Of a stretch of 64,000 bases of DNA, positions 3,001 through 52,315 are shown in pieces. A model generated the notes under the pieces. The model was given only the letters and a program-made list of their open reading frames with translations. It had not been told where the DNA came from and ran no database searches. The position numbers and the translations under genes are program-made. Numbering within the stretch: position 1 is the stretch's first letter; each line of letters begins with the position of its first letter. The stretch is from Candidatus Falkowbacteria bacterium. GTDB taxonomy: Bacteria > Patescibacteriota > Patescibacteriia > Patescibacteriales > UBA12465. The stretch is from assembly GCA_037132255.1 (NCBI GenBank), contig JBAXPN010000001.1:191395-255394 (forward strand). The letters are read 5' to 3'.

Positions 3001-3331
3001 CAACGCTGTTAAGGTTAATGGTGTAACCAAGTCTGCAACTTCTACTGTTAGCATTGCAAACAAGACTATCACTATCGACTTCACACAGTCTGCTGAAGAA
3101 ATTGTTTCTGCTGGTACTTCTAAGACAATTGAAATCTTAGCTAATATCGTTTCTGTTGGTAATAACTCACAATCTTTGACAACAACGATTGCTGAACCTT
3201 CTACCTACACTGATGGTGGCAGCACTACTTTCCAATGGTCTGATGGAGCTTCCATCACTGCAGCTACTTATTCTAGTGGCCGAAGAGTACCTGGCTTAAG
3301 CACGGACACTCAGGTTCTATCTAAGAACTAA
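5..3331 (+). CDS. Cell-surface protein with tandem Ig-like beta-sandwich repeats; the N-terminus lies upstream of the window (5'-partial)
   Basis: The ORF is open from the window edge. The 1108-aa translation is Thr/Ser/Val/Asn-rich and built of repeated ~100-aa beta-strand modules (e.g. VxVxDxxLxxxxxT, KGD...G). It is followed by a clean rho-independent terminator. Confidence 0.5.
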   Translation: MSWYNDFNGVVTIPASELQSYPLGGNVVMRAGTKLVKITTDPSVYAVEPNGVLRKIQSEAQAAALFGTNWNKRVVDVSDAFFTNYTIGAVLANGVIPAGSLVKNASGAEIFYFDGTNYRSIANEAAFNANRFAWGNIITASSTVTAGGSNLSSGEFVNVAQNGGTGIVITGSGLMVSLNASTPAAASVPQNGARVPMAKINLTAANDGAVSVNSILVKRIGLSSYSDVNQVWMEKDGSIVASKKTVNSNDESILTFSPALIVNAGQTVTLDLIASLKGSGGNMGFSIASASAVSSTGATVSGSFPVSGNVMSLTSYNVVNLSITTTAATQSVKVGDEKVELGSFELGFNSTAKDVTVSSIMLKNNGVEDLSKTAMNLYLEQAGNKVSTGVTVNGRYVTFTFGSGLNLLKDDSSKIFKIKGDVIGKENTGTPSYTFTLNKSTDLIAYEKSTGFGANVLNGTSGSVSADNMTISNVNITSGAISVSKKSTSPSDTTIVKGSDNIVLLANVKTDEAMNADGLNISYSSDGSQALTTDQFENVRVYVNGVLLDSFDPATTTAVISKSIDSNLSLVKGDNEIKVMAKAKTNATNNAAFIAKLVTGVGSDALFASKNPTYVSSGNAIAAGSIGGSATGATFTVAGAVISVTRNDGYSAGKTIVKGSNDVSLGKFTLKATNDALTVTSISLAGNSTASTSTTTDSSIFDAKVYVDGVQVGNTVDFTSTGANFSSLNFSIAKDTTKSVEIKASFDSSATGGFKTVMTVNAQDSRGKEITTNNTASTVDFNVTSAGSLNVALGGNTPAAAILVAKAAEQEVAQIKFTAINDSASITEINVINWDGVSATSTTADPRIASVKLYDGSNLLDSFVPVNGAGKFTISNDAALIAANNSKTLSVKVSLNPIDNDSAATDKDLMIRVTTVKSKSSAGSVTSLTANVNANSFRIRKTVPTVTLAALPSTLLTAGNTVVSKFTVSADSNGDVALGKIVLNYSTSSDVVLNTAVLANAVKVNGVTKSATSTVSIANKTITIDFTQSAEEIVSAGTSKTIEILANIVSVGNNSQSLTTTIAEPSTYTDGGSTTFQWSDGASITAATYSSGRRVPGLSTDTQVLSKN

Positions 3332-3872: not shown

Positions 3873-6131
3873 ATGTCGCCAAAAACTTATTTAAGAATTT
3901 TGCAGGGTGGTATTATCGCATCGCTATTTATCATTCTTCTTGTCTTTAAAAATTTGCTTTTCCCGTATATTACCTCGAAGCAACTGCCGTTTAATATTAT
4001 TATGGAGATTCTCTTCGCGCTCTGGGCTGTATTTATGCTTCGATATCCGGAGTATCGACCGAAGAAGAGTTTTATTTCTTATGGATTAATTGCATATTTT
4101 GCCGCTATTCTCGTTTCTTGTTTTATTAGTGTTGATTTTAATTTAAGTTTTTGGGGTGACGCTGAAAGAATGCTTGGCTTCTTTCACTTGGTCCATTTCT
4201 TAATCTTTTACTTTATATTGATAACAGTTTTCCGCACTTGGAAAGAATGGCGCTTGCTCTTTCAGGCATCCGTCGCGATTGCTACTATTGTCAGTTTCGT
4301 TGGTTTATGGGGCGCTAATTCTTATAGCACAATTGGTAACACAGCTTACGTTAGTGGCTATTTAATATTTAGCATTTATTTTATTATTCTGCTTTTCTTC
4401 CGTTCCCAGGATAAGTTGGCTCGTTGGCTTTATATTTTACCCTTAATACCGATGGTGATAGAATTTTGGCGAATGCATACCTCCGGAGCAATTATAGGCT
4501 TGACTCTTAGCATCCTCCTGATGATTTTATTATTCGGCTTATCCCATGTTAATAAAATAATTCGACGTAGCTCTCTAATTATATTTATTCTAGCAATCCT
4601 AGGTATAGTTTGGATATTTTCACAATCAAGTTCCTCTTGGTTTCAAAATAGTTTCTTAAGAAATTTAACTTCACAAAAAGTTACTTTCCAAACCCGTTTA
4701 ATTTCTTGGAAGGGAGCAGCGGCTGATTTTAAGTATCATCCAATTTTTGGCACCGGCTTTGGTAATTATGCCATTATTTTTGATAAGCATTTTACTTCCG
4801 ACTTTTATAACTACACGACCGGAGATACTTATTTTGATCGCGCTCATAATAATTTAATTGATATTACTTCAACCACTGGTCTTGTTGGGCTCGCAACTTA
4901 TCTCAGTATTTTCCTGGCTGCTATTTATTATCTTTGGAAAGAATTTAAGCTTAACGGGAAGAGAACAAGCTCTGATATTGGTGGTCTAAATAATATTGAA
5001 ATTATTATTGCCGTATCTCTCATTGCTGCCTATTTTATTCAAAATTTGGCAATATTTGACTCCTTCTCGACGCTTTTAGGGCTTATTAGCATCCTAGGCT
5101 TCGTTTATTGGCTTGATTATCGTCGCGGCGCAGGTAGCGAGATTAAGAAAGAACCACGCCTTGCTATAAAGGGCGACAATGCGGAATTGATTTGTCTAAT
5201 CGGCTTCTTAGCAATTGCCTATATTTTTACTAATTATTACAACGTCCGTACCTGGAAAATGTTTACCGGATCAATTGATGGCTATGCGCAAATTGCTAAT
5301 GGTCAATTAATCAGTGGCGTAGAGGCCTATAAGTCGAGTTTAACGGGGCGACCGATGGAACGTGACGCACGGGTAACTTTGATTAATCTTGTTATTTCAA
5401 ATCCTAGTTTATTATCAAATCTTGATAGTAAAAAAGCGGGCGAGATATTGGATTATGTAATTGGACTAGCCGAAAAGAATGTCTCTTATAATGTCGAGGA
5501 TAGCATGCAGCAAATGCAATTGGCACAAATTCTTGATGCGGCTGCACGCTATAATTACCGTAATGCCGAGAAATTTAATTTCTACTCAAGTCAGGCAATG
5601 TCGGCCATTGACGCTTCTATCGCGGCAAGCCCGGGACGTGCCACAACCTACTTTGTTAAAGCTCAGATGCAACTTATGCGCATGGAGAATGAGGATGCCA
5701 TAAACACTATGAAGGTCGGCATCGCTTTGAATCCTAATTATTATGAAGGTCATTGTCGTTTAGCGCAGATGTACTTTGTTCTTAAGGATCCGAAGTATGA
5801 AGCCGATAAAGGTTTGGCCTTAAATAACTGCGTTGACAAGGGAGGGGTTGATCAGATTGGTTCAGATACCCTATTAAAGTTAGCGATTAATTATTACTCA
5901 GACGCGAAAGACTATTCACGCGCGGCAATATTAACTGAGCGCCTTGCTGTTGTTACCGGAGCTGACCCAGAAGTTTGGTATAATTTAGCCAAGCTTTATG
6001 CTGTTATTGGTAGTTCAACTAAGGCTGAGGAATCATTTCAAAAGGCTTACGCGCTTGATTCTACGATTTCCGTAAAAGATTGGCAGGCATTTAAGACTAC
6101 TATTGAAACAAATCGAAAGGCCGTGAAATAA
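3873..6131 (+). CDS. O-antigen ligase (Wzy_C)-like polytopic membrane protein fused to C-terminal TPR repeats
   Basis: The N-terminal ~450 aa has about 10-12 hydrophobic helices and a large loop typical of WaaL/Wzy-type ligases. The C-terminal ~280 aa carries TPR-like motifs (...AKLYAVIGSSTKAEESFQKAYALD...). This Wzy_C-TPR fusion is a common architecture. Confidence 0.6.
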   Translation: MSPKTYLRILQGGIIASLFIILLVFKNLLFPYITSKQLPFNIIMEILFALWAVFMLRYPEYRPKKSFISYGLIAYFAAILVSCFISVDFNLSFWGDAERMLGFFHLVHFLIFYFILITVFRTWKEWRLLFQASVAIATIVSFVGLWGANSYSTIGNTAYVSGYLIFSIYFIILLFFRSQDKLARWLYILPLIPMVIEFWRMHTSGAIIGLTLSILLMILLFGLSHVNKIIRRSSLIIFILAILGIVWIFSQSSSSWFQNSFLRNLTSQKVTFQTRLISWKGAAADFKYHPIFGTGFGNYAIIFDKHFTSDFYNYTTGDTYFDRAHNNLIDITSTTGLVGLATYLSIFLAAIYYLWKEFKLNGKRTSSDIGGLNNIEIIIAVSLIAAYFIQNLAIFDSFSTLLGLISILGFVYWLDYRRGAGSEIKKEPRLAIKGDNAELICLIGFLAIAYIFTNYYNVRTWKMFTGSIDGYAQIANGQLISGVEAYKSSLTGRPMERDARVTLINLVISNPSLLSNLDSKKAGEILDYVIGLAEKNVSYNVEDSMQQMQLAQILDAAARYNYRNAEKFNFYSSQAMSAIDASIAASPGRATTYFVKAQMQLMRMENEDAINTMKVGIALNPNYYEGHCRLAQMYFVLKDPKYEADKGLALNNCVDKGGVDQIGSDTLLKLAINYYSDAKDYSRAAILTERLAVVTGADPEVWYNLAKLYAVIGSSTKAEESFQKAYALDSTISVKDWQAFKTTIETNRKAVK

Positions 6132-38190: not shown

Positions 38191-38631
38191 ATGAGACTTT
38201 GGAGTATTAGCCCTATATATTTAGATACTAAGGGGCTATTGGCTGTATGGCGCGAAGCCTTGCTGGCGAAAAAAGTTCTCGAAGGAAATACTAATGGTTA
38301 TAAGAACCATCCGCAATTAATAAGGTTTAAGGAAAGCAAAGATACCGAAGCTAATATTAACGCTTACTTGTTTGGCATCTATTTAGAAGCCGAGTCTCGC
38401 GGATATAAGTTTTCTGCAGACAAGATTAAGACCTTGAAAATTTTAAATAAAAAGATTAAGGTAAATAAAGATCAGCTAGATTACGAATTTTCACATTTAC
38501 TTAATAAGTTAAAGGCTAGAGATACAAAAAAATATAGAGAGATTAAAGATATTAAACGGCCGGAAGCCCATTTTTTATTTGAAGAAATACCAGGCGGAGT
38601 AGAGAAGTGGGAAATAGTTAAGGACAATTGA
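38191..38631 (+). CDS. Pyrimidine-dimer DNA glycosylase (T4 endonuclease V-like) family protein
   Basis: The N-terminus MRLWSISPIYLDTKGLLAVWREALLA aligns with T4 endoV (T)[25 protein letters not shown], including the catalytic Glu in (Y/W)RE. This is recalled from memory, not searched. Confidence 0.55.
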   Translation: MRLWSISPIYLDTKGLLAVWREALLAKKVLEGNTNGYKNHPQLIRFKESKDTEANINAYLFGIYLEAESRGYKFSADKIKTLKILNKKIKVNKDQLDYEFSHLLNKLKARDTKKYREIKDIKRPEAHFLFEEIPGGVEKWEIVKDN

Positions 38632-38637
38632 ATACAT

Positions 38638-38708
38638 TCGGGGATCGTCTAACGGTAGGACAACAGGTTCTGGTCCTGTTTATTGGGGTTCGAATCCCTA
38701 TCCCCGAG
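38638..38708 (+). tRNA. tRNA-Gln (anticodon CUG)
   Basis: TCGGGGA acceptor (U1:A72, typical of bacterial Gln), anticodon arm ACAGG-TTCTGGT-CCTGT giving anticodon CTG, and T-arm TGGGG-TTCGAAT-CCCTA. No CCA is encoded. Confidence 0.85.
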
Positions 38709-38847
38709 CACTGAAGAAAAATCGCTTTTATTGATGATTTCACCGAAGGATTATGATAATTTTTTCAATAAATTAAGAAATGGTAAATGGAATGATTTTG
38801 TTTCTACCCTGGAAATTGACTTAGAACAAATATAAAAAAACTCTAAC

Positions 38848-39558
38848 ATGAGCTTAAAATCCTTTATTGATAATTGGAAAAAGAAACGGATAGAGAGAGC
38901 CGCGGAACAGAAACGCCTAAAGGATCTTTTCGAAAAGTTTTTAGTTGAAACACGACCATTAGCTCCTAAAGCACCAAAATATCATGAGGCAGCAATCCTT
39001 CGTTATGCTTGGAAGCGAGCTGTTATCCTTAGCTTTTTATTTGAAGATATTCCAAATTCAGAAAAAAATTATCTATATCGAAATTTTGCACAAATTGCAT
39101 CAAGAAAATATAATCGTATCGCACCAGAAAATGCCTATGGTAAAGTTAGGCTAAGTATTGAGCAAAATGCAGCCATGAAACTTTTTGAAAAGGAAAAGGG
39201 AATGCTTTTTCCTCAAAAAGTGGCGTCGGCTTATTCTCGAGAACTCGCCTGTATCTACTTGGGGACCGATGATCAAGGCAAATGTTATATTGGACAAACA
39301 TTAGGAGCTCCAGAGTTTCGCTGGGTGCAACATAGGGCGGGCAATACAGGACCCTTTAAAAAGGGCGCTACTTATGTTAAATGGGAAGTTTTAGAGCGTA
39401 ACGTAGACCCCTTTGACTTGAATAAAAAAGAAGCTTACTATATTGGTCTTTACAATTCATTAACAGATGGTCATAACGATAATCGGGGTAATGATTTTGA
39501 AGCTTATGAAAAGGGTCTCAGTGAGAATCGTATAAAAAATATCGGAACTATAGCCTAA
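38848..39558 (+). CDS. GIY-YIG nuclease-domain protein with an unknown N-terminal domain
   Basis: ACIYLGTDDQGKCYIGQT is GIY-x9-YIG. It is followed by the conserved Arg (EFRWVQHR) and ...YYIGLYNS.... The gene lies 140 bp downstream of tRNA-Gln. Confidence 0.6.
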   Translation: MSLKSFIDNWKKKRIERAAEQKRLKDLFEKFLVETRPLAPKAPKYHEAAILRYAWKRAVILSFLFEDIPNSEKNYLYRNFAQIASRKYNRIAPENAYGKVRLSIEQNAAMKLFEKEKGMLFPQKVASAYSRELACIYLGTDDQGKCYIGQTLGAPEFRWVQHRAGNTGPFKKGATYVKWEVLERNVDPFDLNKKEAYYIGLYNSLTDGHNDNRGNDFEAYEKGLSENRIKNIGTIA

Positions 39559-39585
39559 TTATTTGATAATTTTTATTTTAAAAAT

Positions 39586-40419
39586 ATGAAATTTAAAAAA
39601 CTAGGTAAGTTGAGCCTAACGGCAATCTATTATTTTGTAAATTTAGTTATTATATTGATTGGAATATTATTTTTTTGGCCCATAAGTCCTTTTATAAGTC
39701 AACCTTATGAAATATATTCAACAATTTCTTTTCTAGCTTTAATTTTGATTCCTATTTACGCGATTTTTTATAAAAATAAAATAATGAGTAAATCAGTAAG
39801 AGTTATATTATTATTAATTTTATTTACTTTATTATGCTCAGCTGAATTTTATATTTTAAGCTTTTTTGAGATATTACCGATAATATTAGTACTATTAGCT
39901 TTAATTTATTTTAACAGAATTAGTTTAAAAAAATGGTTATCGTCTGAAAAAAATAATCTTTCGATGGTATTTCGTAAAAAATCGAATATACTAAATAAAA
40001 ATATCAACAAGCTGTTAACTAAAATTTTACCACTTATTATTCTCTATTTATTATTTATTATTTCCTTCCTCGGAAATAGCGATTATGAGCTATTGATTGT
40101 TTTACTAGCCGCAATTCCTCTAATTATTTATATATTTACCGAGAATGGCAATCTTAAAAAGTATCTTCAGTACCTACTATACCTATTTATTATTGGTATT
40201 ATATTTTATTGGGTGAAAGATTCTTATGGTTATGTCTGGTCAATATTTAATGGTTATTTTTCATTTTCTTGGCCTTCTTGTTACTTTGCAGGATGTTATG
40301 GTGAGACAGGACGGAATGTTTTTATTCAGAGTGGTGTTTTTTATGGAGATTTAAAGGTTATATTTTATTTAGGAGTTATTTATTTAGCTATTAAAAATAA
40401 GAATAGAATTAAGGATTAA
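39586..40419 (+). CDS. Very AT-rich polytopic membrane protein (277 aa), probably horizontally acquired
   Basis: About 7-8 TM helices. Estimated gene GC is about 20-25%, markedly below the neighbouring genes. No recognisable family. Confidence 0.45.
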   Translation: MKFKKLGKLSLTAIYYFVNLVIILIGILFFWPISPFISQPYEIYSTISFLALILIPIYAIFYKNKIMSKSVRVILLLILFTLLCSAEFYILSFFEILPIILVLLALIYFNRISLKKWLSSEKNNLSMVFRKKSNILNKNINKLLTKILPLIILYLLFIISFLGNSDYELLIVLLAAIPLIIYIFTENGNLKKYLQYLLYLFIIGIIFYWVKDSYGYVWSIFNGYFSFSWPSCYFAGCYGETGRNVFIQSGVFYGDLKVIFYLGVIYLAIKNKNRIKD

Positions 40420-40542
40420 AATCTTATTTATTACTAGTCATCCAAGTTCTAAAGCAATCCTTCTAGGAGAGAAAATAGCCAAAATTGCACGTTCTTATGA
40501 TTTTTTTTGAAAGAGCGTATTAATAAATATAAATAAAAAAAT

Positions 40543-40791
40543 ATGAATCAACCAGAAATAAAACAACAAGAAATAGAGACCGTTAAAGAAACTAGATCAA
40601 ATTTAACAGTTGGAAATGGATTTAATTTTGGCCTTGGTTTTGGAATCGGATTTTTTATTTCCGGAGTCATCATTTCTATTATAACGGGCTTTATTGTATT
40701 TACTCTTTTTGCGTCAACTATCACTTCTTTTCAGAAAGCTATAACTGACCCATTCGGATTTAAAAGCAGCAGTCAAAGCTTATTTAAATAG
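40543..40791 (+). CDS. Small membrane protein with a Gly-zipper TM segment (82 aa)
   Basis: GNGFNFGLGFGIGFFISGVIISIITGFIVF, a GxxxG-rich hydrophobic helix. Confidence 0.35.
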   Translation: MNQPEIKQQEIETVKETRSNLTVGNGFNFGLGFGIGFFISGVIISIITGFIVFTLFASTITSFQKAITDPFGFKSSSQSLFK

Positions 40792-40936
40792 CAAATGGGT
40801 CACGACTTAGATCCTAAGTTCAGATGGAACAAGAATACAAATTGACAAAGTAGGGCATTATCACCGTTCCAACTATACCCCAAATTCCAAGCAATACATT
40901 AAATAGGCTTAAATTAGCCTATTTTTTGTTATAGTA

Positions 40937-40965
40937 TTGACAAATATGATATAATATGATATAGT
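40937..40965 (+). promoter_or_regulatory. Near-consensus sigma70 promoter (TTGACA-17-TATAGT)
   Basis: -35 TTGACA at 40937-40942, a 17-nt spacer, and -10 TATAGT at 40960-40965. It lies about 115 bp upstream of the small TM peptide genes. Confidence 0.55.
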
Positions 40966-41081
40966 ATTCTTGTTAGAATATGAACCTTAAAAATATATTT
41001 TATTTGGATTAATCACTAAGAGCGCCTAAAAAGACGAGCTTGGTAATTAATCCAAATATTCATACACAAACAAATTTTAGC

Positions 41082-41219
41082 CATGAAAAACAAAAGAACA
41101 ATGCTAATTATTAAACTGGCCCTAATACTGGGCTTTACAATCGGAATGTTACTGATAATTAACAACATGACGGGCCCGACATTGGATCCGCCGCGCACAA
41201 TTAAGTCAGTTAAATAAAA
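41082..41219 (+). CDS. Small hydrophobic peptide (45 aa, MKNKRTMLIIKLALILGFTIGMLLIINNMTGPTLDPPRTIKSVK)
   Basis: Not in the ORF track (under 60 aa). It has a single TM helix and lies downstream of a strong promoter. Confidence 0.3.
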
Positions 41220-41238
41220 CCATATAAAGTAAAAGGCA

Positions 41239-41433
41239 ATGACGCAATTTTGGAAAGTAATAATGTGGATCACATTCGTGACCATGATCGGCGGAGTGAC
41301 ATACTCTGCAGCTATAATGTTCTTAGAACACAAAGCGGTACTAATATTGCCGTCCTGGCTAGTATTTATAGCAGCAGTACTCGGTCTAATCGCCGCCATA
41401 ATGACAATTACTCGATTAGATTTGGAAGATTAA
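41239..41433 (+). CDS. Small two-TM membrane protein (64 aa)
   Basis: Two hydrophobic helices. It is followed by a clean terminator. The overlapping 127-aa minus-strand ORF is judged spurious. Confidence 0.4.
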   Translation: MTQFWKVIMWITFVTMIGGVTYSAAIMFLEHKAVLILPSWLVFIAAVLGLIAAIMTITRLDLED

Positions 41434-41447
41434 CATCTTTCCATTTC

Positions 41448-41480
41448 TGGCCCCGGAAACAAATCGGGGCTTTTTTATTT
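41448..41480 (+). terminator. Rho-independent terminator
   Basis: Hairpin GCCCCG-GAAACAAAT-CGGGGC followed by T6. Confidence 0.8.
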
Positions 41481-41538
41481 TTCCAATTTTTCATATATTA
41501 GGTTATAATATATAAATAATGTCCTAAAAAGAATTATT

Positions 41539-42168
41539 ATGATTCGTTTTAAAACTATCTCTATTTTTGTCGCGATTTCGCTAATTTTATTTATAGCTGT
41601 CTTTTTCTACGGTCGTTATCTGGGGCAAAAAAATGTTTCATTAGAAGCTCAAAAGCCGACCATAAATTCTCAAACAGTTTTAGAGCGGATAACAAGCCAA
41701 TATTTTTTAGTTACAAAAACTGTTTTTGTTAATAGTAAGGCCGAAATTGAAACACCAAAAAATAACAATTGGACCGATATATTTACCGGAAAGAAAATTA
41801 CAGTTGACGGCTTAATTAGGGTCGATGTCGGTGTCGAGATGAAAAATATGCGCCCGGAAAATATCGTCGTCGATTCTGAACAAAAAACGGTAACGATCAG
41901 CCTTCCACACGCCGAAATACTTGATGCCTCGTTATCTGGTGAATTAAATATCGATGAAGATAAAGCAATTACCGAGAAGCTCAAAGATGTTTTTAAGAAT
42001 ACGCAAAATGATGATTATAACTTAGCCCTCCAAACATTAATCGACAGCGCAAAAAGCCAAGTAACAGCCGACGAGAATATATTTAATTCTGCGCGAAGCG
42101 ATTCATTAAAGTTAGTCGAATTGATAGTTTCTGGCATGCTTGATGGATACAAATTAATAATTAAATAA
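41539..42168 (+). CDS. DUF4230-like membrane-anchored protein
   Basis: N-terminal TM, then ...SQYFLVTKTVFVNSKAEIE... and ...KITVDGLIRVDVGVEM..., resembling DUF4230. Confidence 0.45.
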   Translation: MIRFKTISIFVAISLILFIAVFFYGRYLGQKNVSLEAQKPTINSQTVLERITSQYFLVTKTVFVNSKAEIETPKNNNWTDIFTGKKITVDGLIRVDVGVEMKNMRPENIVVDSEQKTVTISLPHAEILDASLSGELNIDEDKAITEKLKDVFKNTQNDDYNLALQTLIDSAKSQVTADENIFNSARSDSLKLVELIVSGMLDGYKLIIK

Positions 42169-42179
42169 AAAATCTATTT

Positions 42180-43721
42180 ATGATATTTTGGGTATTGTAT
42201 TTTAGTGCTATAGCGTATTTTCAGATATCCAATACGATTAACGCGAATGCCTTTCTTAATCTGGGACTCTGCCTTTTTGTATTTATTCCGGTTCCTGAGA
42301 ATTTAAAGAGTAAAAAAATAATAAATATTATACGGACGCTTATTGCCTATATTCTTGCAATAACTTTATTATGGTCCGAATCTTATTTACCCCCCTTTAA
42401 AGTTATTTGGAATTTTTTTGTGCGTCCTGAGCTGCGACCAAGCCTGAGCTATATTTTGAATTTTGTGAACTCATTTTTCCAAATAAAATCTCTTCTTATT
42501 GTTTTAGCGATAATTACCATAGCATTACTTTTTAAATATACTAAACTAAAAAAAATCTCTCCAGCATTTTTTGCGATTTGCATCTTGATTCTATTCATTA
42601 CACAAAAGACAGCCATCAGCAAGGATTTTATTGATCGTTTCTATGCGAAAGAAGCGGCAAGATCATTCAGTATTTCGGAAAATCCGCAGAATAATTTCGA
42701 TGTAATAATTCTACAAATATGTTCGTTGTCCTGGGATGATTTGCAATACGCCAATACTGACGCAAAGTCTTTATTACGAAAATTTGATTATGTTTTCACC
42801 AATTTTAATTCAGCTACCCCATATAGCGATCCAGCAGCTCTTCGATTATTACAATCGGGTTGTGGACAAAAAACTGAGGGAGAATTATTTGCCACAGCTC
42901 CTGACAAATGTTATCTTTTAAACAATTTCCGAGCTCTAGACTATTCGACCTATTCCGCCTGGAATCATGATGGAAATTATTCAGACTTTAAATCCATAGT
43001 TCCTAAATACGGCAAGGCAGACCAGCCAATCAATATCAGCAGCCTGAAGCCGACTGAATTAAGTTTTGATAATGCGCCTATTTACCGTGATGGGGAGGTC
43101 TTGGATTTATGGCTCAAACAAAGAGAAACTAGCGGTAAGAAGTCTCTATTATTTTATAATAGTATTAGCCTGCATACAGGTTCGAGCTACATAGACGGCC
43201 AAAAATTATCTGAAAAGGATGAATATTCTTTGGCTTCAAAAAATGTTTTTAGCGATCTTGATAGTTTCCTGGATAAAATTAAGGCCAGTCAGCGCAATAC
43301 AATCGTTATATTATTAGGTGAACACGGGGCGGCGATTAGCGGCTCTAGCGTCCAGCCATCGACGGTCAGGGATATTCCGCTACCTTCGATCACGCAGGTG
43401 CCAGCGGCTGTAAAAATATTTGGACCTGGCTTTAATAGTGAAAACCCAAACAAAACAAGCATTATTAGTGATCCGGTTAGTTATACAGCTTTAGTCAAAA
43501 TTATCTCAAATGTTTTAGAAACCAACCCACAAAGTAGGCAAGAGCTACAAAATGCTAAGGTTGATAATAATTTACCGTTAACCGATCTTGTATCAGAATC
43601 TGAGAGCAGTATTGTATTCCAGGACGCGAGCGGGGTATTCTATAAATCTAAAAAAGATAAAAATTGGAATCAATTACCAAGCTCTTTTATGGTCAAGCCA
43701 GCGAACTATTTAGCGAATTAA
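42180..43721 (+). CDS. Membrane protein with a C-terminal alkaline-phosphatase-superfamily-like domain; candidate BcsG-like (phosphoethanolamine transferase) homologue
   Basis: Four or five N-terminal TM helices, then a ~350-aa extracytoplasmic domain containing ...VIILQICSLSWDDLQY... and ...VILLGEHGAAISG.... The Glu-His pair (rather than Asp-His) and a CSLSW-like nucleophile motif match what I recall for E. coli BcsG. It lies immediately upstream of the cellulose-synthase-family GT2. Confidence 0.4.
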   Translation: MIFWVLYFSAIAYFQISNTINANAFLNLGLCLFVFIPVPENLKSKKIINIIRTLIAYILAITLLWSESYLPPFKVIWNFFVRPELRPSLSYILNFVNSFFQIKSLLIVLAIITIALLFKYTKLKKISPAFFAICILILFITQKTAISKDFIDRFYAKEAARSFSISENPQNNFDVIILQICSLSWDDLQYANTDAKSLLRKFDYVFTNFNSATPYSDPAALRLLQSGCGQKTEGELFATAPDKCYLLNNFRALDYSTYSAWNHDGNYSDFKSIVPKYGKADQPINISSLKPTELSFDNAPIYRDGEVLDLWLKQRETSGKKSLLFYNSISLHTGSSYIDGQKLSEKDEYSLASKNVFSDLDSFLDKIKASQRNTIVILLGEHGAAISGSSVQPSTVRDIPLPSITQVPAAVKIFGPGFNSENPNKTSIISDPVSYTALVKIISNVLETNPQSRQELQNAKVDNNLPLTDLVSESESSIVFQDASGVFYKSKKDKNWNQLPSSFMVKPANYLAN

Positions 43722-43817
43722 AAAATGAGCCGCGAGGCTCTTTTTTGAAATAGCAAGCTTATTTAATATATGGTATATTAAATATGTGGAATTTAAGCAA
43801 AACTAAAGCCTTGCCAG

Positions 43818-45356
43818 GTGAAGAAAAGAACTCGAATATATTTAATTCTATTCAGTCTAGCAGCGCTAGGCTTATTTGTGTATTTTGGGGTTCGCCTCTA
43901 TGTCTTTTTTTCCAATGGTCATGGATTCTTAAACGTTACAATTTCCTTTTTTCTTTTACTAGCCGAAACTCATTCTATTCTGCATTCACTGGGTTTTATA
44001 ATTGGTCTTATTAGACTTCGTAATACTAGTGACGAACACAACCGTCACGCAAAGCTTGATCGAAATAATTTACCATCCGTCAGCATTCTGATACCAGCGA
44101 GAAACGAACCTTTAGACATACTCGAGATTACCTTTATCTCAGTTGTTTCTCTGGATTATGTAAATAAAAAAATTGTCTTTCTGGATGGCTCGGATGAAAA
44201 ATATTTAGCCGATAATAAAAACCTTGCCCTAAAATACGGTATCGACTACTTTCATCCAAACGAAAAACCAAAAAGTAAAGCAGAAATAGTAAATAAGTAT
44301 TTGCCGAGCATTTTAAGTAAGTACATAACAATTTTTGATGCCGATCAAAACCCCTTACCAGAATTTTTAATGGAAACTGTCGGACTAGCTGAGTATTCAA
44401 ATAAAATCGGCTTCATTCAAACGCCACAACTATACTCGAATCTTAACGCCAGTCCGATCGCCCGCGGCGCTGCCCTCCAGCAATCAATTTTTTATGAAAA
44501 TGTCTGCGAGGCGAAAGGGAAGTCTGGCGCTATGTTTTGTTGTGGCACGAACTTCCTTATGCAAACAGTTGCCTTGAAAAAAGTCGGAGGATTTGACGAG
44601 GACTCTGTGACTGAAGATTTTGCAACCTCCGTTAAAATTCATTCTTTAGGCTATCGTTCAATATACTATAACCACGTCAGAGTTTTCGGTATGGCTCCTG
44701 AAACTTTACCAGCCTATCTTAAACAACAATTTCGCTGGTCTGCGGGTTCGGTTGGTGTTTTACGCCGCCTGGTGATTGATTCTTGGAATGGTAAATTACA
44801 CCTCCGCATTTCCCAAGTTTGGGAATACTTTCTTTCAGCAACCTATTATTTCGTTGGCTGGTCATTCTTAATTTTAATGCTTTGTCCGATTCTTTATTTA
44901 TTATTTGATGTGCCGACATACTTTGCGAGTCCATATCTTTATCTCGGAACATTTATCCCTTACTACGTTCTAATGATGATTACTTTCTATTCAACCATGA
45001 AAAGAAGGCATTATAAAATGAAAGATGTTTTCAATGGCATTATCATGGGTTCATTAAGTTATCCGGTACTCATAAAATCAACCACGGCCGCAATTTTAGG
45101 AAAAAGAGTAACTTTTGAAATCACTGATAAAGGCAAATCAGGAAAACTAAGTTTTCTCAGTTTATGGCCTTGGACAATAATGATCGCCTTAAATATACTC
45201 GCAATCACTAACGGCCTACTTCATTTTTCTGAAAACCCCTACGCAATAATCGTAAATATTGTTTGGTGCACTTACCACGCCTTACTACTTTCACGTGTAT
45301 TTAAATTAAACAGAACTCCAATAATAGAAAAAAATAATGTCCTAAACTATACTTAA
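43818..45356 (+). CDS. Processive family-2 glycosyltransferase of the cellulose synthase (BcsA/CelA) family, with no PilZ domain
   Basis: IQTPQ, MFCCGTNF (similar to FFCGS), VTEDFATSVKIHSLGYRSIY (the TED ... H..GW.S.Y block) and QQFRWSAGS (QxxRW). TM helices flank both sides of the catalytic domain. Confidence 0.7.
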   Translation: MKKRTRIYLILFSLAALGLFVYFGVRLYVFFSNGHGFLNVTISFFLLLAETHSILHSLGFIIGLIRLRNTSDEHNRHAKLDRNNLPSVSILIPARNEPLDILEITFISVVSLDYVNKKIVFLDGSDEKYLADNKNLALKYGIDYFHPNEKPKSKAEIVNKYLPSILSKYITIFDADQNPLPEFLMETVGLAEYSNKIGFIQTPQLYSNLNASPIARGAALQQSIFYENVCEAKGKSGAMFCCGTNFLMQTVALKKVGGFDEDSVTEDFATSVKIHSLGYRSIYYNHVRVFGMAPETLPAYLKQQFRWSAGSVGVLRRLVIDSWNGKLHLRISQVWEYFLSATYYFVGWSFLILMLCPILYLLFDVPTYFASPYLYLGTFIPYYVLMMITFYSTMKRRHYKMKDVFNGIIMGSLSYPVLIKSTTAAILGKRVTFEITDKGKSGKLSFLSLWPWTIMIALNILAITNGLLHFSENPYAIIVNIVWCTYHALLLSRVFKLNRTPIIEKNNVLNYT

Positions 45357-45357
45357 T

Positions 45358-45615
45358 ATGAAAAATAAACCAAATATTATGTCCCCAGAGCTAGTTTTAC
45401 AGCTCATTAACGAGGCAAGGATAAAAGAAGAGTTAGCTATCCCGATTTATACTAGCCATATAAAACAAACCCTGTTTTGGTCTGGACTACCTAATGCTAA
45501 GCAAGAAAAAATAATAGCGAGTTTAAAATTACTAGAAGCGGATTCGCAGAAACACGCTAAAATCTTAAAAATGGTCGCAAATAATTACACTAAATATCTT
45601 AAAAAATATGTTTAA
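45358..45615 (+). CDS. Ferritin-like half-domain protein (85 aa); possibly the 5' part of a frameshifted gene
   Basis: Helix pair with E...E and ExxH (LEADSQKHAKIL). It overlaps the next ORF by 8 nt at an A6 run (45601-45606). Confidence 0.4.
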   Translation: MKNKPNIMSPELVLQLINEARIKEELAIPIYTSHIKQTLFWSGLPNAKQEKIIASLKLLEADSQKHAKILKMVANNYTKYLKKYV

Positions 45616-45796
45616 TAATAACGATTATCGTACATATTTTAAGCAGCTTTACGAAGTTGAATTAATGATGAAGCGTGAAGGCGAGGAATTATTAAAATTA
45701 GTTCCCGACGAAGAATCGCAATTAATTCTAAAAAGTCTAGTCGCTGATGAAATAAGACACGCTAAAATAGTTAAAGAAATGATGGCACTTATTTAA
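45608..45796 (+). CDS. Ferritin-like half-domain protein (62 aa); possibly the 3' part of the same frameshifted gene
   Basis: Helix pair with E...E and ExxH (ADEIRHAKIV). It is in the +1 frame relative to the upstream ORF. Confidence 0.4.
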   Translation: MFNNNDYRTYFKQLYEVELMMKREGEELLKLVPDEESQLILKSLVADEIRHAKIVKEMMALI

Positions 45797-45806
45797 CAAT
45801 AATCTT

Positions 45807-46697
45807 ATGTCTAAAATAAAAACTGCAGTTATACCAGTCGGTGGTTGGGGTACTAGATTCCTTCCAATTACTAAAAGTATCCCAAAAGAGATGCTTCCGC
45901 TCGGCAACAAACCTATAATTCTTCACGTTGTCGAAGAAGTAGTTGCATCCGGCATCACCAATATTATTTTCGTCGTTTCGCAACATAAGCAAGTTATTGA
46001 AAGTTTCTTTTCCAGCAACGAAATGCTCGAAGATTATTTTCTTAAAATTGGAGCTAAGGCACAGGCGGAAAATCTGAAGAAAATTACCGAGATGGCCAAT
46101 TTTACTTTCGTCTACACTAAAAATCCTCACGGAAATAGCGGCGCTCTTGGAGCTGTTCGTAATTTAGTTAAAGATGAACCATTTATAGTTATCTGGTCAG
46201 ACGAAGTAATTATTTCGAAAGAAAAAACACGTGTCAAGCAATGTCTTGAAACTTTCGAAAAATATAATAAGCCAGTTATCTCAGCTGTGAAAATACTTGA
46301 CCCGAAAAAACGACAGCGCTATGGCATGGCTGAATTAGCTGACATGGAAGGCGAAACTGATATTAAAGAAATCAAAAGCATCGTCGAAAAACCGGCCTTC
46401 GGAACCGAACCATCGGAATACGCAACACATGGTGCTTATGTCCTAACTTCAGAAATATTTACTGCACTTGATACAATTCCTGATAATGAGGAAAAGGAAA
46501 TTAGCCTTGTTGATGTAATCAATATCATGAAGGAAAAAACCGGTTTAATCGCAAAAATTATTCCCGATGCACATTATCTTGATTGTGGTAATCCGCTCGA
46601 ATATCTGTATTCGCAAATTGACTATTATGCCAATTACTCGGAATACTCCGCTGACGTTCTTGATTACCTGGGAAAGGGAGTTTGCAAACGAGTCTAA
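45807..46697 (+). CDS. galU: UTP--glucose-1-phosphate uridylyltransferase
   Basis: AVIPVGGWGTRFLPITKSIPKEMLP, the G-x-G-T-R-x-L-P-x-T-K nucleotidyltransferase motif. Confidence 0.8.
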   Translation: MSKIKTAVIPVGGWGTRFLPITKSIPKEMLPLGNKPIILHVVEEVVASGITNIIFVVSQHKQVIESFFSSNEMLEDYFLKIGAKAQAENLKKITEMANFTFVYTKNPHGNSGALGAVRNLVKDEPFIVIWSDEVIISKEKTRVKQCLETFEKYNKPVISAVKILDPKKRQRYGMAELADMEGETDIKEIKSIVEKPAFGTEPSEYATHGAYVLTSEIFTALDTIPDNEEKEISLVDVINIMKEKTGLIAKIIPDAHYLDCGNPLEYLYSQIDYYANYSEYSADVLDYLGKGVCKRV

Positions 46698-46708
46698 ACA
46701 ATATACGA

Positions 46709-46742
46709 CAAAAAAAACGAGCGCTTGGCTCGTTTTTTATTT
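46709..46742. terminator. Bidirectional rho-independent terminator between convergent genes
   Basis: Hairpin AACGAGC-GCTTG-GCTCGTT flanked by A8 and T6. Confidence 0.8.
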
Positions 46743-46748
46743 AAGAAA

Positions 46749-47522
46749 TTATTTTGTTATTAGACTCCGCATCGAAAGGCTTTTATTTGAGATTCCTTCG
46801 CTGAATGATTTTATCTCTTCATTCTCATATTGAAGTCCGAGAAAATATATTAATGGTAAATAATGTTCTGGTGTCGGAATAGATGATTTCGCCTCTGGGC
46901 CTAATTTTTCGAAATCAATTAATTTTTTATAGTCATGACTATTTATGAGTTGCGAGACGTGTTCATCAAATTTAGAAGCCCAAGAGTAGGGAATAGCGCT
47001 TTCATCAAAGTCGATAAGTCCAAGATTATGAACAATATTCCCGCTACAGACGATTAAACATCCATCTTCACGCAAAGCGCGTCCAATCTGAAAATGATAA
47101 TCAGAAGGCTTGCTGCCGTTTATACTTAATTGAGCTACCGGAATATCGGCCTTCGGGAATAAGCGTGACAGTGGAACCCAGGCGCCATGATCAATGCCCC
47201 ACGAATTATCAAATTCAATATTTTCTATCGGTTCGAGCAACTCTTTTATCTTTTTCGCAATTTCCGGCGAACCAATTACAGGATATTTAAGCACGTATAG
47301 TTCTTCGGGAAAACCATAAAAATCATTAATCTGCTTTGGTTGTTTTGTATCCGAGGTCACCGTCTTATCAGTATACCAATGCGCAGAGATGCATAAAATT
47401 GCCTTTGGCCTAACAAGATCTTGCCCGATTTTTTCCCAGGATGCAGTATAGACATTATTCTCAATTGCGTTCATCGGACTTCCATGCCCAATAAATATAG
47501 CTGGCATTCTTGATTTTGTCAT
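46749..47522 (-). CDS. Class III extradiol dioxygenase (LigB/YgiD-type, 4,5-DOPA-dioxygenase-like)
   Basis: MPAIFIGHGSPMNA... and ...ILCISAHW... are characteristic YgiD-family motifs. Confidence 0.7.
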   Translation of the reverse strand: MTKSRMPAIFIGHGSPMNAIENNVYTASWEKIGQDLVRPKAILCISAHWYTDKTVTSDTKQPKQINDFYGFPEELYVLKYPVIGSPEIAKKIKELLEPIENIEFDNSWGIDHGAWVPLSRLFPKADIPVAQLSINGSKPSDYHFQIGRALREDGCLIVCSGNIVHNLGLIDFDESAIPYSWASKFDEHVSQLINSHDYKKLIDFEKLGPEAKSSIPTPEHYLPLIYFLGLQYENEEIKSFSEGISNKSLSMRSLITK

Positions 47523-47605
47523 AGATTTTATATATTTCGATTAATATTCTTAATTAATTATATTCCAGTTTTCAAATAAATACACGATATTTCTAAAAAT
47601 TTTCA

Positions 47606-47634
47606 TTGACCACGCCCAATTTTAAGTCTAAAAT
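47606..47634 (+). promoter_or_regulatory. Sigma70-like promoter (TTGACC-17-TAAAAT)
   Basis: -35 at 47606-47611 and -10 at 47629-47634, about 35 nt upstream of the permease start. Confidence 0.4.
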
Positions 47635-47669
47635 AATTATAAGAAGACATAAATTATAATAAAAATATA

Positions 47670-48635
47670 ATGTTTTATCCCCTCGAACTATTTGCAAATT
47701 GGCTAACATTCTCAGTTTTTAGGCTTGCGCAGAATACGAAAAGCGGAGAAGTTCTGAGCTATTTTATTTTCGATACCTTAAAAATTATCATTCTTCTGTT
47801 CATTATTATCTTTCTTGTTTCCTTTATCAGGACGTACCTTCCAGCAGATAAAGTTAGAATATTTCTAGCGAAGAAACGAAAACTAAGCGCACATATTTTA
47901 GCCTCACTACTGGGCATAATAACACCATTTTGTTCCTGTTCGGCTGTGCCCCTATTTTTAGGGTTCGTTGAGGCGGGCATACCGCTTGGCGTAACTTTCT
48001 CTTTTTTAGTAGCATCACCAATGATTAACGAAGTCGCTTTAGTTTTATTATTAGGACTCTTTGGCTGGAAAATCGCTCTCATATATATTATTAGTGGACT
48101 ACTTATCGCAATAATATCCGGTCTTATAATCGGTCGTTTAAAAGTGGAGCATCTCATCGCTGATTTTGTCTGGACTAAAAATGAAAACAAAATTAAAACA
48201 AATAGCACTCAAAAGACATTTAATGAAAGGGTTCGTTATTCAAAAAAATATGCCCTGAATATTATTAAAAATGTCTGGGCATATATTATTATTGGAGTCG
48301 GCCTTGGCGCCTGGATTCACGGATACGTGCCAGCTGATTTTTTAATAAAATATGCTGGGGCGGGAAAATGGTATGCCGTCCCCTTAGCCACATTAATCGG
48401 AATACCATTATACTCAAATACTGCTGGGGTCATCCCGCTTGTTAGCGCCCTCACAGAGAAGGGTCTAGCGATTGGCACAACCCTAGCGTTTATGATGGCC
48501 GTAACCGCGCTTTCGCTTCCCGAGTTTATGATTTTAAAAAGAATCATGAAAACAAAACTTATTGTTATATTTGCCTCAGTTGTTGGCTCAGGCATAATTA
48601 TCGTCGGCTACCTATTTAATTATATTTTAAAATAG
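47670..48635 (+). CDS. DUF318/ArsP-like permease
   Basis: About 8 TM helices and a TPFCSCS motif (ILASLLGIITPFCSCSAVPLF), which is the signature of the ArsP organoarsenical-efflux-permease family. Confidence 0.65.
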   Translation: MFYPLELFANWLTFSVFRLAQNTKSGEVLSYFIFDTLKIIILLFIIIFLVSFIRTYLPADKVRIFLAKKRKLSAHILASLLGIITPFCSCSAVPLFLGFVEAGIPLGVTFSFLVASPMINEVALVLLLGLFGWKIALIYIISGLLIAIISGLIIGRLKVEHLIADFVWTKNENKIKTNSTQKTFNERVRYSKKYALNIIKNVWAYIIIGVGLGAWIHGYVPADFLIKYAGAGKWYAVPLATLIGIPLYSNTAGVIPLVSALTEKGLAIGTTLAFMMAVTALSLPEFMILKRIMKTKLIVIFASVVGSGIIIVGYLFNYILK

Positions 48636-51958: not shown

Positions 51959-52315
51959 ATGATTTTTTTGTGTCTTAAAAAGCGACCCCCGATGTCGTTT
52001 TATGTTATAATTTTATATATGGCAATTGAAGTAATTATAAAATATTTAACTTATCTAATTATTGCAATTAATCTGCTTTCATTTTTTATTGTTTTTTTGG
52101 ATAAGAAAAAAGCAGAAAATGAAACAGAGAGAATTAGCGAAAAGACCTTATTTGCCTTGGCTATTCTTTTTGGTGGTATCGGAATATATTTTGCTATGTT
52201 TAGCTTTCATCATAAAACAAAAAAATGGTATTTCGTTTTAGGAATACCATTTATAATCGCCGCTAATATTTATCTACTGAATATTGCTTTAAACTTTTTA
52301 AATAGACAAGTCTAA
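51959..52315 (+). CDS. DUF1294 membrane protein
   Basis: ...ISEKTLFALAILFGGIGIYFAMFSFHHKTKKWYF... matches the DUF1294 core. Confidence 0.55.
   Translation: MIFLCLKKRPPMSFYVIILYMAIEVIIKYLTYLIIAINLLSFFIVFLDKKKAENETERISEKTLFALAILFGGIGIYFAMFSFHHKTKKWYFVLGIPFIIAANIYLLNIALNFLNRQV

Follow-up and report, generated by a model that had tools for sequence, protein, structure and literature searches.

SegB of phage T4 is a GIY-YIG homing endonuclease encoded in a tRNA gene cluster and is reported to recognise a motif of the T-psi-C stem-loop (PMC2330249; PMC13096335). In this work we describe a locus at which the gene of a predicted, free-standing GIY-YIG endonuclease lies next to a tRNA gene of a cellular genome. 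The analysed stretch of DNA, referred to below as the window, comprises 64,000 nucleotides of a metagenome-assembled Candidatus Falkowbacteria (Patescibacteria) genome (GenBank assembly GCA_037132255.1, contig JBAXPN010000001.1, positions 191,395 to 255,394 of the forward strand). Results of our analysis indicate that window positions 38710-40863 are probably accessory DNA, ~2.15 kb long and mosaic, which was inserted 3' of a tRNA-Gln(CUG) gene, at a recurrent insertion hot spot of Candidatus Falkowbacteria. The 3' end that tRNA-Gln had originally, its terminator and the promoter behind it would have been moved away by the insertion to what is now 40864-40965, with later decay of the tRNA end. 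The insert itself may consist of two unrelated acquisitions, the GIY-YIG gene next to the tRNA and the genes of two membrane proteins, M277 and M82, further away from it.

Candidate Phyla Radiation bacteria have very small genomes and, to our knowledge, little has been documented on mobile DNA in them. Foreign genes appear to enter by way of one tRNA-Gln gene, that of this locus, throughout a family-level lineage, and one of the residents of the site represents a small GIY-YIG nuclease family, the genes of which cluster beside tRNA genes, like that of phage T4 SegB. The islet itself is a known kind of feature; the GIY-YIG family is its moderately novel part.

The proposed insert and its boundaries

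The features of the proposed insert and of its two boundaries are the following:

38638-38709, plus strand: tRNA-Gln(CTG) gene (ARAGORN; Rfam RF00005, 56.6 bits), left boundary of the insert, with its 3' end as the predicted insertion site
38710-38847, plus strand: 138-nt spacer between the tRNA and the GIY-YIG gene, predicted start of the inserted DNA, with no terminator hairpin
38848-39558, plus strand: free-standing GIY-YIG endonuclease gene (236 aa; PF01541; MEI6529007.1)
39586-40419, plus strand: M277, 277-aa polytopic membrane open reading frame (ORF), the compositional outlier of the window
40543-40791, plus strand: M82, 82-aa glycine-rich ORF, last gene within the insert
40864-40892, plus strand: putative decayed copy of the tRNA-Gln 3' end, CCGTTCCAACTATACCCCAAATTCCAAGC, right boundary of the insert (pseudo-attR)
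40895-40932, plus strand: intrinsic terminator, hairpin with a 9-bp stem (40901-40924) and a T run (-14.1 kcal/mol, z = -5.25)
40937-40965, plus strand: sigma-70-type promoter, TTGACA-17-TATAGT with TG (extended -10), 11/12 match

The proteins of the region are deposited in GenBank as MEI6529007-11. The gene order given in the preliminary description of this DNA (GIY-YIG protein, 277-aa membrane protein, 82-aa membrane protein) agrees with the ORFs and the Pfam results. M82 is followed by a non-coding stretch of 291 nt, which holds the terminator stem and the promoter. The spacer at 38710-38847 does not resemble the sequences that follow tRNA-Gln in relatives. A putative ORF of 50 aa was called in this spacer in a second assembly of the same species, the Logan contig L086 (L-numbers denote the fetched related loci and contigs); its codon score is 0.23 bits per codon, as compared to 0.14-0.48 for real genes and -0.02 +/- 0.17 for spurious ORFs. 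A search of the 36-44 kb region of the window against Rfam identified the tRNA as its only RNA and no intron around the GIY-YIG gene; a match to RAGATH-7 in the same search (23.7 bits vs. the gathering score of 111.8) was dismissed as a chance one.

The 3' flank of tRNA-Gln in related genomes

With the use of LysS we fetched 80 species-level loci, whose LysS proteins are 64-89% identical in sequence. The order lysS-(Pyr_excise)-tRNA-Gln is kept in 50 of them, as are the greA and O-antigen-ligase-like genes further upstream; in the window, too, tRNA-Gln is preceded by greA, lysS and a Pyr_excise gene. The 149 ORFs downstream of tRNA-Gln in these 50 loci fall into 133 clusters, and thus almost none of them is common to relatives. 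Synteny is kept upstream of tRNA-Gln and lost downstream of it, with the break exactly at tRNA-Gln, and the insert of the window begins at 38710, directly past the tRNA 3' end. The genes of the GIY-YIG protein, M277 and M82, as well as the two small ORFs that follow them in the window (p44 and p64), are absent downstream of tRNA-Gln in all 50 species loci, a set with no strain-level comparison in it; the preliminary description had proposed such a check of relatives at the lysS-tRNA-Gln locus.

Assembly breaks, recombinase genes and repeats point to the same site. Contigs end within 181 nt past the tRNA-Gln 3' end in 18 of the 50 loci (within 6 nt in 9 of these), while only 8 contig ends occur anywhere across the 10 kb upstream of tRNA-Gln; in L086, the contig of the same species, the sequence starts 27 nt ahead of the tRNA-Gln end. 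In L006, a 530-aa ORF of a large serine recombinase (Pfam Resolvase, Recombinase and Zn_ribbon_recom) adjoins tRNA-Gln; ORFs that cluster with it are present in L009, L017 and L031, and L021 contains a fragment of a large serine recombinase with Zn_ribbon only. The last 17 nt of tRNA-Gln recur in the loci of relatives in 10 further copies (8 exact), all of them downstream of the gene, on the plus strand and in the same orientation, with no copy in 570 kb of upstream sequence. One of these loci, L004, has a single AP_endonuc_2 gene and no integrase in the 0.94 kb between tRNA-Gln and an exact 17-nt repeat. These comparisons indicate a hot spot of recurrent insertion 3' of tRNA-Gln throughout Candidatus Falkowbacteria, and the proposal that the tRNA-Gln 3' end serves as an integration site is borne out by the synteny break, the adjoining recombinases and the strictly downstream tRNA-end copies. 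In the window no recombinase domain was found at 38.7-49.1 kb, which agrees with the earlier view of a ~2.2-kb remnant devoid of an integrase.

The proposed right-hand boundary

The decayed attR postulated in the preliminary description at about 40866-40883 gained no support from direct comparison. In local alignments of the tRNA 3' half with 38760-41540 and with 38760-48000, the best scores did not exceed those of shuffled sequences, and the same was true of the tRNA 3' end aligned to 40860-40890. The attR idea was therefore first rejected; this was reversed because the stretch appeared to be homologous to tRNA-end-linked modules elsewhere. The sequence CCGTTCCAACTATACCCCAAATTCCAAGC of the window and the hairpin and TTGACA promoter that follow it align to the real tRNA-Gln 3' end, hairpin and promoter of L032, and to the exact 17-nt tRNA-end repeat and the same module of L004, located 0.94 kb downstream of tRNA-Gln. 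Decayed tRNA-end copies with the same terminator-promoter module are present in L037, L018 and L013; the copy of L018 is 95% identical to window positions 40863-40884 over 22 nt (E = 2.6e-5, the sole such match in the window). More broadly, 40863-40994 has matches in many relatives. In an nhmmer search, all 13 of the 13 module copies that include the tRNA-end part were downstream of tRNA-Gln, 6 of them at the real tRNA end, and a model built without the window sequence still detected 40879-40949 with E = 1e-14. The fragment 40864-40892 itself no longer folds (z = +0.6). Owing to the homology to tRNA-linked modules and to this E-value, an integrase-less insert of ~2.15 kb ending at a decayed right-hand repeat is a fair description of the locus.

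The hairpin at 40895-40932 occurs directly 3' of the real tRNA-Gln in L032, and related terminator modules occupy the same position in L013, L018, L023, L027 and L040. Hence, we interpret the hairpin of the window as the displaced original terminator of tRNA-Gln. The GIY-YIG gene, M277 and M82 would be read through from the tRNA side, with transcription ending at this old terminator. As for the promoter, the TTGACA-17-TATAGT sequence noticed earlier is the best match in the region. The number of promoter-like sites in the region is at chance level (21 found vs. 20.6 expected), and the credibility of the site at 40937-40965 comes from its conservation in other species: L004, L010, L023 and L028 have a TTGACA box and a TG-n-TATAAT-like box behind the hairpin, with unchanged spacing.

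The failure of direct tRNA alignment is what would be expected if the genes in question were ordinary lineage-specific ones, the poor downstream synteny reflected the fast evolution of small genomes, and the tRNA-like and terminator-promoter similarities reflected a common intergenic consensus. The sole upstream match to the module, at -10,985 in L028, which covers the hairpin and promoter part without the tRNA-end part, fits such an explanation too, as does the limited LysS identity of the compared species. It would have to account, however, for the upstream synteny of four genes that is kept in more than 50 species and lost downstream in all of them, for tRNA-end copies that are strictly downstream and in one orientation (10 vs. 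0), for the pile-up of contig ends at the tRNA 3' end, and for the recombinase genes that adjoin the tRNA. We regard it as the least probable of the alternatives considered here.

The GIY-YIG protein and its family

The GIY-YIG protein matches PF01541 with 25.1 bits (cut-off of 22.6; E = 2.3e-5) over residues 135-204, and PHROG families of homing endonucleases with E = 7e-5. Among 5.8 billion proteins we found 23 homologues at E <= 0.001, including 22 of full length and one annotated as a Sungbacteria protein. The N-terminal domain is common to all 22 aligned members, in which Y137 (of C-I-Y137), Y147 (of Y147-I-G), R158, H162, E195 and N210 are invariant, and the dN/dS ratio of the family is 0.08-0.16. 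In the AlphaFold model (pLDDT of 83), four long helices precede the GIY-YIG core; the helical N-terminal domain comprises residues 1-125 and the C-terminal GIY-YIG domain residues ~135-215. The core at 135-201 has the beta-beta-alpha-beta-alpha order of the GIY-YIG fold, with a pLDDT of only 55-90 in this domain. Thus, the profile score above the threshold, the catalytic residues and the alpha/beta fold all place the protein in the GIY-YIG superfamily. The gene, which lies between tRNA-Gln and M277 and outside any intron or intein (no Rfam intron), is free-standing. The arrangement of Seg/SegB-type enzymes, in which the GIY-YIG domain is N-terminal and a DNA-binding domain C-terminal, is not that of this protein, as its nuclease domain is C-terminal.

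A Foldseek search of BFVD aligned ~100 residues of the model with models of 'intron associated endonucleases' (rmsd of 3-4 A), and the similarity covered the catalytic domain only. The N-terminal domain of ~125 residues had no match in PDB by sequence or Foldseek, in line with its earlier description as an unknown domain. Full-length relatives of the protein were found neither in 2.9 million viral contigs nor in 50,697 phage records, where matches were at the domain level only, with ~32% identity. As judged from sequences and the structural model, the GIY-YIG family is small, previously undescribed and moderately novel, and its predicted N-terminal domain is new.

Mobility of the GIY-YIG gene and its association with tRNA genes

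The homologues of the GIY-YIG gene are distributed sporadically, and the genes that flank them differ in every context, so that the 23 homologues reside in unrelated surroundings. DNA homology between these contexts covers the ORF and at most 105 nt upstream of it, with 73-93% identity, and in every pairwise comparison it ends at the stop codon; in the case of the window gene it starts 4-16 nt before the ATG. The GC content of the gene (0.38-0.43) does not track that of its flanks (0.33-0.50). The genes of L087 and L097 are 93% identical at the DNA level and lie beside different tRNAs. A tRNA gene in the same orientation is located 80-366 nt upstream of the GIY-YIG gene in five of the nine contexts of the close clade, namely tRNA-Gln in the window, tRNA-Ser-CGA in L084, tRNA-Leu in L087, tRNA-Asp in L094 and tRNA-Ser-GGA in L097; in L103, of a distant clade, the partner is tRNA-Val. 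With tRNA adjacency at a background of 1.6% of genes, five of nine corresponds to P ~1e-7, and T-arm-like hairpins have a background of 0.03 per kb. In L089, a piece of the tRNA-Asp 3' end, with a homologous counterpart in L094, travels with the GIY-YIG gene.

The best-supported reading of these data is that the gene is a single-gene selfish element that favours tRNA 3' flanks and encodes a predicted endonuclease, which also makes a homing-type nuclease the best supported of the options listed earlier for this gene. Such an element would move between genomes as little more than its ORF; by analogy with SegB of phage T4, the endonuclease probably cuts conserved tRNA-gene DNA, with the gene being copied in during the repair of the break.

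The repeated presence of the gene within 80-370 nt of tRNA genes, in the same orientation, might alternatively reflect a cellular, tRNA-linked role of the protein, for example in processing, repair or quality control, as a co-transcribed rather than selfish nuclease, and the strong purifying selection evident from the dN/dS values would suit this role. The family counts only 23 homologues among 5.8 billion proteins, however; it is patchy across distant Patescibacteria, with protein identities of 72-77%, its partner tRNAs differ, three contexts have no tRNA, and its catalytic domain is closest to those of homing endonucleases. We find a cellular role improbable.

Several contexts of the homologues have repeats of their own. 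In L084 (9845-11720), L094 (1900-3460), L097 (990-1110) and L089 (5890-6033), successive ORFs, including the GIY-YIG one, are each preceded by a repeated motif that consists of a T-arm/acceptor stem/CCA-like sequence followed by AGAYAAYTTTTTATCGG and GACCCGAGTRGCC. This arrangement resembles a cassette array and is absent from the window, where the motifs GACCCGAGTRGCC and GGGTACTTAACCC, which occur beside GIY-YIG genes elsewhere, were not detected beyond chance. In the TARA contigs L095 (5041-7661) and L090, each ORF in the vicinity of the GIY-YIG homologue has repeats of 46-88 nt in front of it, and next to these lies the gene of a serine recombinase. L089 also contains, at 5224-5901, between tRNA-Glu and the tRNA-Asp 3' fragment, a 225-aa ORF with an HTH-like N-terminal stretch and no Pfam match, whose motif 'LIGAALYWAEGY' recalls LAGLIDADG endonucleases. 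On the tRNA-rich contig L084, which carries a GIY-YIG homologue, positions 2966-3189 between tRNA-Phe and tRNA-Gly match a group I intron with 46.4 bits (gathering score of 50).

A further-reaching proposal, which we put forward as a doubtful one, is that the family targets tRNA genes via its N-terminal domain and in this way makes tRNA 3' flanks of Patescibacteria integrase-independent sites of cassette acquisition, with the arrays of L084 and L094 and, more loosely, L095 as the products. The enzyme would cut at conserved T-arm or acceptor DNA of tRNA genes, and the mobile unit would be composed of a tRNA 3' fragment, a leader of ~80 nt and the ORF. If the enzyme does use this domain to recognise tRNA-gene DNA, a phage homing system would have its counterpart in cells, and the domain would be a new DNA-recognition module.

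Composition of the proposed insert and its membrane protein genes

The 55 ORFs of the window have a mean GC content of 0.368 (sd 0.034) and a mean GC at third codon positions (GC3) of 0.322 (sd 0.039). Against this baseline the GIY-YIG gene is ordinary (GC of 0.376), M277 is an outlier at every codon position (GC of 0.242, within the 20-25% estimated before, and GC3 of 0.195, ~3.5 sd below the window genes), and M82 is low (0.317 and 0.220). The sharp fall in composition that had been placed right after tRNA-Gln is real; it starts, however, at about 39560, some 850 nt past the tRNA, and extends to about 40800. The ordinary GIY-YIG gene is outside this fall, and the composition varies within the islet. 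Elsewhere in the window only one more ORF deviates strongly in composition, a low-GC one at 51959-52315 (118 aa, GC of 0.263, 57% hydrophobic residues).

M277 has ~7 hydrophobic segments and seven homologues with a conserved C-terminal module of 41 invariant columns. It matched nothing in Pfam, PADLOC, PHROG or NCBIfam, nor in phage records. Its homologues are located in other variable regions, near genes of NERD, Macro and HD domains or of a Dam methylase with DUF4238, and in no other contig examined do the M277 and GIY-YIG families occur together. M82 has one hydrophobic segment (residues 35-53) and a codon score of 0.23 bits per codon, within the range of real genes; the protein collection holds only its identical sequence, no homology search having been run on M82. 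Pfam gave only sub-threshold noise for M82, p44 and p64, and NCBIfam nothing for the islet proteins.

The presumed tRNA-end repeat at the right boundary, the large serine recombinase elements at the same tRNA in other species, and the integrase-less single-gene insert of L004 with its exact 17-nt repeat would all be compatible with a single integrative element, in which the GIY-YIG gene, M277 and M82 arrived together by the action of an integrase at the tRNA-Gln 3' end and the integrase was deleted later, leaving attL and a decayed attR. A common arrival is difficult to reconcile with the difference of 13 percentage points in GC content between adjacent genes, with GIY-YIG and M277 families that are never neighbours elsewhere, and with GIY-YIG homology that stops at the stop codon in each comparison; we consider it unlikely. 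The GC contents of the three genes and the lack of co-occurrence of the two families lead us instead to the mosaic reading, in which M277 and M82 would have been taken from a more AT-rich donor.

The contents of the islet had also been described as one mobile or defence-type cassette, and a single cassette is not supported for the same reasons, the GIY-YIG gene being transferred as a single ORF. With respect to defence, homologues of both genes do occur in defence-island-like regions: the GIY-YIG gene adjoins that of TIR_2 (L087), SLFN_AlbA_2 (L164) or RelA_SpoT (L081), and the neighbours of M277 homologues named above are of a similar kind. A nuclease acting as sensor or effector might then work with one or more membrane proteins, as abortive-infection effectors, in an anti-phage system. 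Yet PADLOC-DB 2.0 gave no match at E <= 1 for the GIY-YIG protein, M277, M82, p44, p64 or the DUF4230 protein encoded further downstream, the two families do not co-occur, and the GIY-YIG gene has another partner in each of its contexts, a pattern that suits a selfish passenger more than part of a system. A role of the insert as a defence cassette thus seems to us a poor prospect.

Points that weigh against the proposed insertion

Several observations speak against the mosaic insertion as described above, or against parts of it. By direct alignment with tRNA-Gln, 40864-40892 is at chance level, and the site named in the preliminary description scores only 11; the attR claim stands on the homology to the tRNA-linked module of L032 and L004 (E = 1e-14). 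The same derived form of the tRNA end is present in three species (that of the window, L018 and L037), and it may have been inherited from long ago, or mark where an element ends, instead of being a recent attR. This shared form suggests an old insertion event followed by turnover of the cargo, a point of which we are less certain. The contig breaks at the tRNA could in part reflect co-occurring species that share the tRNA sequence rather than strain polymorphism. The set contains no closely related genome with an empty site, and the nearest LysS matches (85-89%) stop 1.6-1.8 kb past the tRNA. As regards the GIY-YIG gene, three contexts of the close clade (L081, L162 and L164) have no tRNA, and the window gene does not have the junction of conserved leader and tRNA fragment that is found in L084, L087, L089, L094 and L097. 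Moreover, the domain order of the protein is the reverse of that of SegB and I-TevI, and both its cleavage activity and its tRNA-gene target are putative.

The predicted p44/p64 transcription unit

Past the right boundary, the window contains the following features:

41001-41058, plus strand: long imperfect hairpin in the 5' leader of p44/p64 (self-complementary match; folding)
41083-41217, plus strand: p44, putative coding ORF of 44 aa, charged at its N-terminus and with one hydrophobic helix behind it
41239-41433, plus strand: p64, 64-aa ORF with two hydrophobic helices (MEI6529010.1)
41016-41399, minus strand: alternative 127-aa ORF, antisense to p44 and p64, called in L086; probably spurious
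41449-41481, plus strand: second intrinsic terminator, 8-bp stem (41449-41471) with 6 G-C pairs and a T run (-13.1 kcal/mol)

The two tandem peptides of the preliminary description are thus present as ORFs, the first of them with 44 instead of 45 aa, and the terminator said to close the pair was found as well. Their inclusion in the islet did not hold: on the sequence evidence, p44 and p64 lie outside the insert, past its right boundary, and their promoter is part of what ancestrally followed the tRNA. With this promoter and the second terminator, the predicted unit would give a transcript of ~500 nt. The leader structure is an imperfect hairpin or palindrome, TTTGGATTAAT...ATTAATCCAAA; the folding of 40972-41090 has -27.4 kcal/mol and z = -6.4, and none of 200 shuffled sequences was as stable. 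The p44/p64 stretch has an unusually high GC3 (0.44-0.48).

GenBank annotates p64 in a 56-aa version that starts at 41263. No GenBank annotation, no entry in the protein collection and no match in the fetched loci was found for p44, and a search for p64 homologues among 5.8 billion proteins retrieved identical sequences only; P0033, a 412-aa member of the p64 cluster, was set aside as an unrelated artefact of clustering. An exhaustive HMMER search of 1.84 billion cluster representatives with the antisense 127-aa ORF matched only the ORF itself. The codon scores of p44 (0.07 bits per codon), p64 (0.10-0.13) and the antisense ORF (0.08) are ambiguous, that of p44 being below real genes, and one public gene caller (in L086) prefers the antisense ORF over p44/p64. 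The promoter and the terminator on the plus strand favour this strand, and the antisense ORF is probably spurious. As p64 and the antisense ORF have no homologues, the toxin-like nature proposed for the hydrophobic peptides is a conjecture.

Other possibly variable parts of the locus

Past the second terminator, the window encodes the DUF4230 protein, BcsG and a BcsA-like protein. Genes of BcsG, a BcsA-like cellulose synthase and an NTP-transferase occupy 42180-46697, in a genome of Patescibacteria. A BcsA block is located 2.8 kb past tRNA-Gln in L004, and the gene of an ArsP permease, which in the window is at 47670-48635, directly follows the tRNA in L032 and L023. From these positions, the variable zone of the window may extend to ~47.6 kb. 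On the 5' side of tRNA-Gln, only ~13 related loci have the Pyr_excise gene, which in the window lies at 38191-38631 between lysS and the tRNA and encodes a pyrimidine dimer glycosylase similar to T4 endonuclease V; therefore there may be a second variable slot on that side.

In five related species (L002, 12010-12194; L007, 2805-2997; L012, 11995-12185; L025, 11655-11870; L050, 12650-12840), a GC-rich segment of 150-200 nt lies behind tRNA-Gln and its terminator. The segment closes with 17-19 nt that copy the tRNA-Gln 3' end exactly, and a second terminator comes next. The 5' GGGGA of the segment pairs with its 3' TCCCC, and the internal CAGGGAT/CTAGGAT covaries with the species-specific ATCCCTG/ATCCTAG. 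No family of Rfam matched the segment, which could be either a structured RNA that resembles a tRNA or a miniature element targeting the tRNA.

Comparison with known systems

The p44/p64 unit, and this unit only, shares with type I toxin-antitoxin peptides the short ORFs with hydrophobic helices, the strong promoter, the long structured 5' leader and a terminator of its own. It differs in that p44 and p64 have no homologues, no identified antisense RNA and no convincing antisense promoter, and in their ambiguous codon signal.

The islet is similar to tRNA-associated islands and islets in its location at a tRNA 3' end, in the tRNA-end-derived repeat proposed for its far boundary, in the partly atypical composition of its cargo, in its absence from related species, and in the presence of recombinase-bearing elements at the same tRNA in relatives. 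Unlike them, it has no integrase, its repeat is badly decayed, with a derived form common to two other species, and its cargo is tiny (2.15 kb) and mosaic. Additionally, the recombinases of the relatives are large serine recombinases and not classical tyrosine integrases.

With the intron-associated endonucleases of the I-TevI/Seg type, the GIY-YIG protein shares the fold and motifs of the catalytic domain, as indicated by the BFVD and PHROG matches. Those enzymes are built of an N-terminal GIY-YIG domain, a linker and C-terminal DNA-binding modules, while the nuclease described here is C-terminal. The same reversed order, with a helical N-terminal domain, distinguishes it from SegB, to which it has no similarity outside the catalytic domain; furthermore, SegB is encoded by a phage, whereas the present gene resides in cellular Patescibacteria genomes and its cleavage activity is putative. 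What the two have in common is a GIY-YIG catalytic domain encoded by a free-standing gene beside tRNA genes: the genes of the present family are located 80-370 nt past the T-arm of six different tRNAs, and in L089 a tRNA 3' fragment is co-transferred with the gene.

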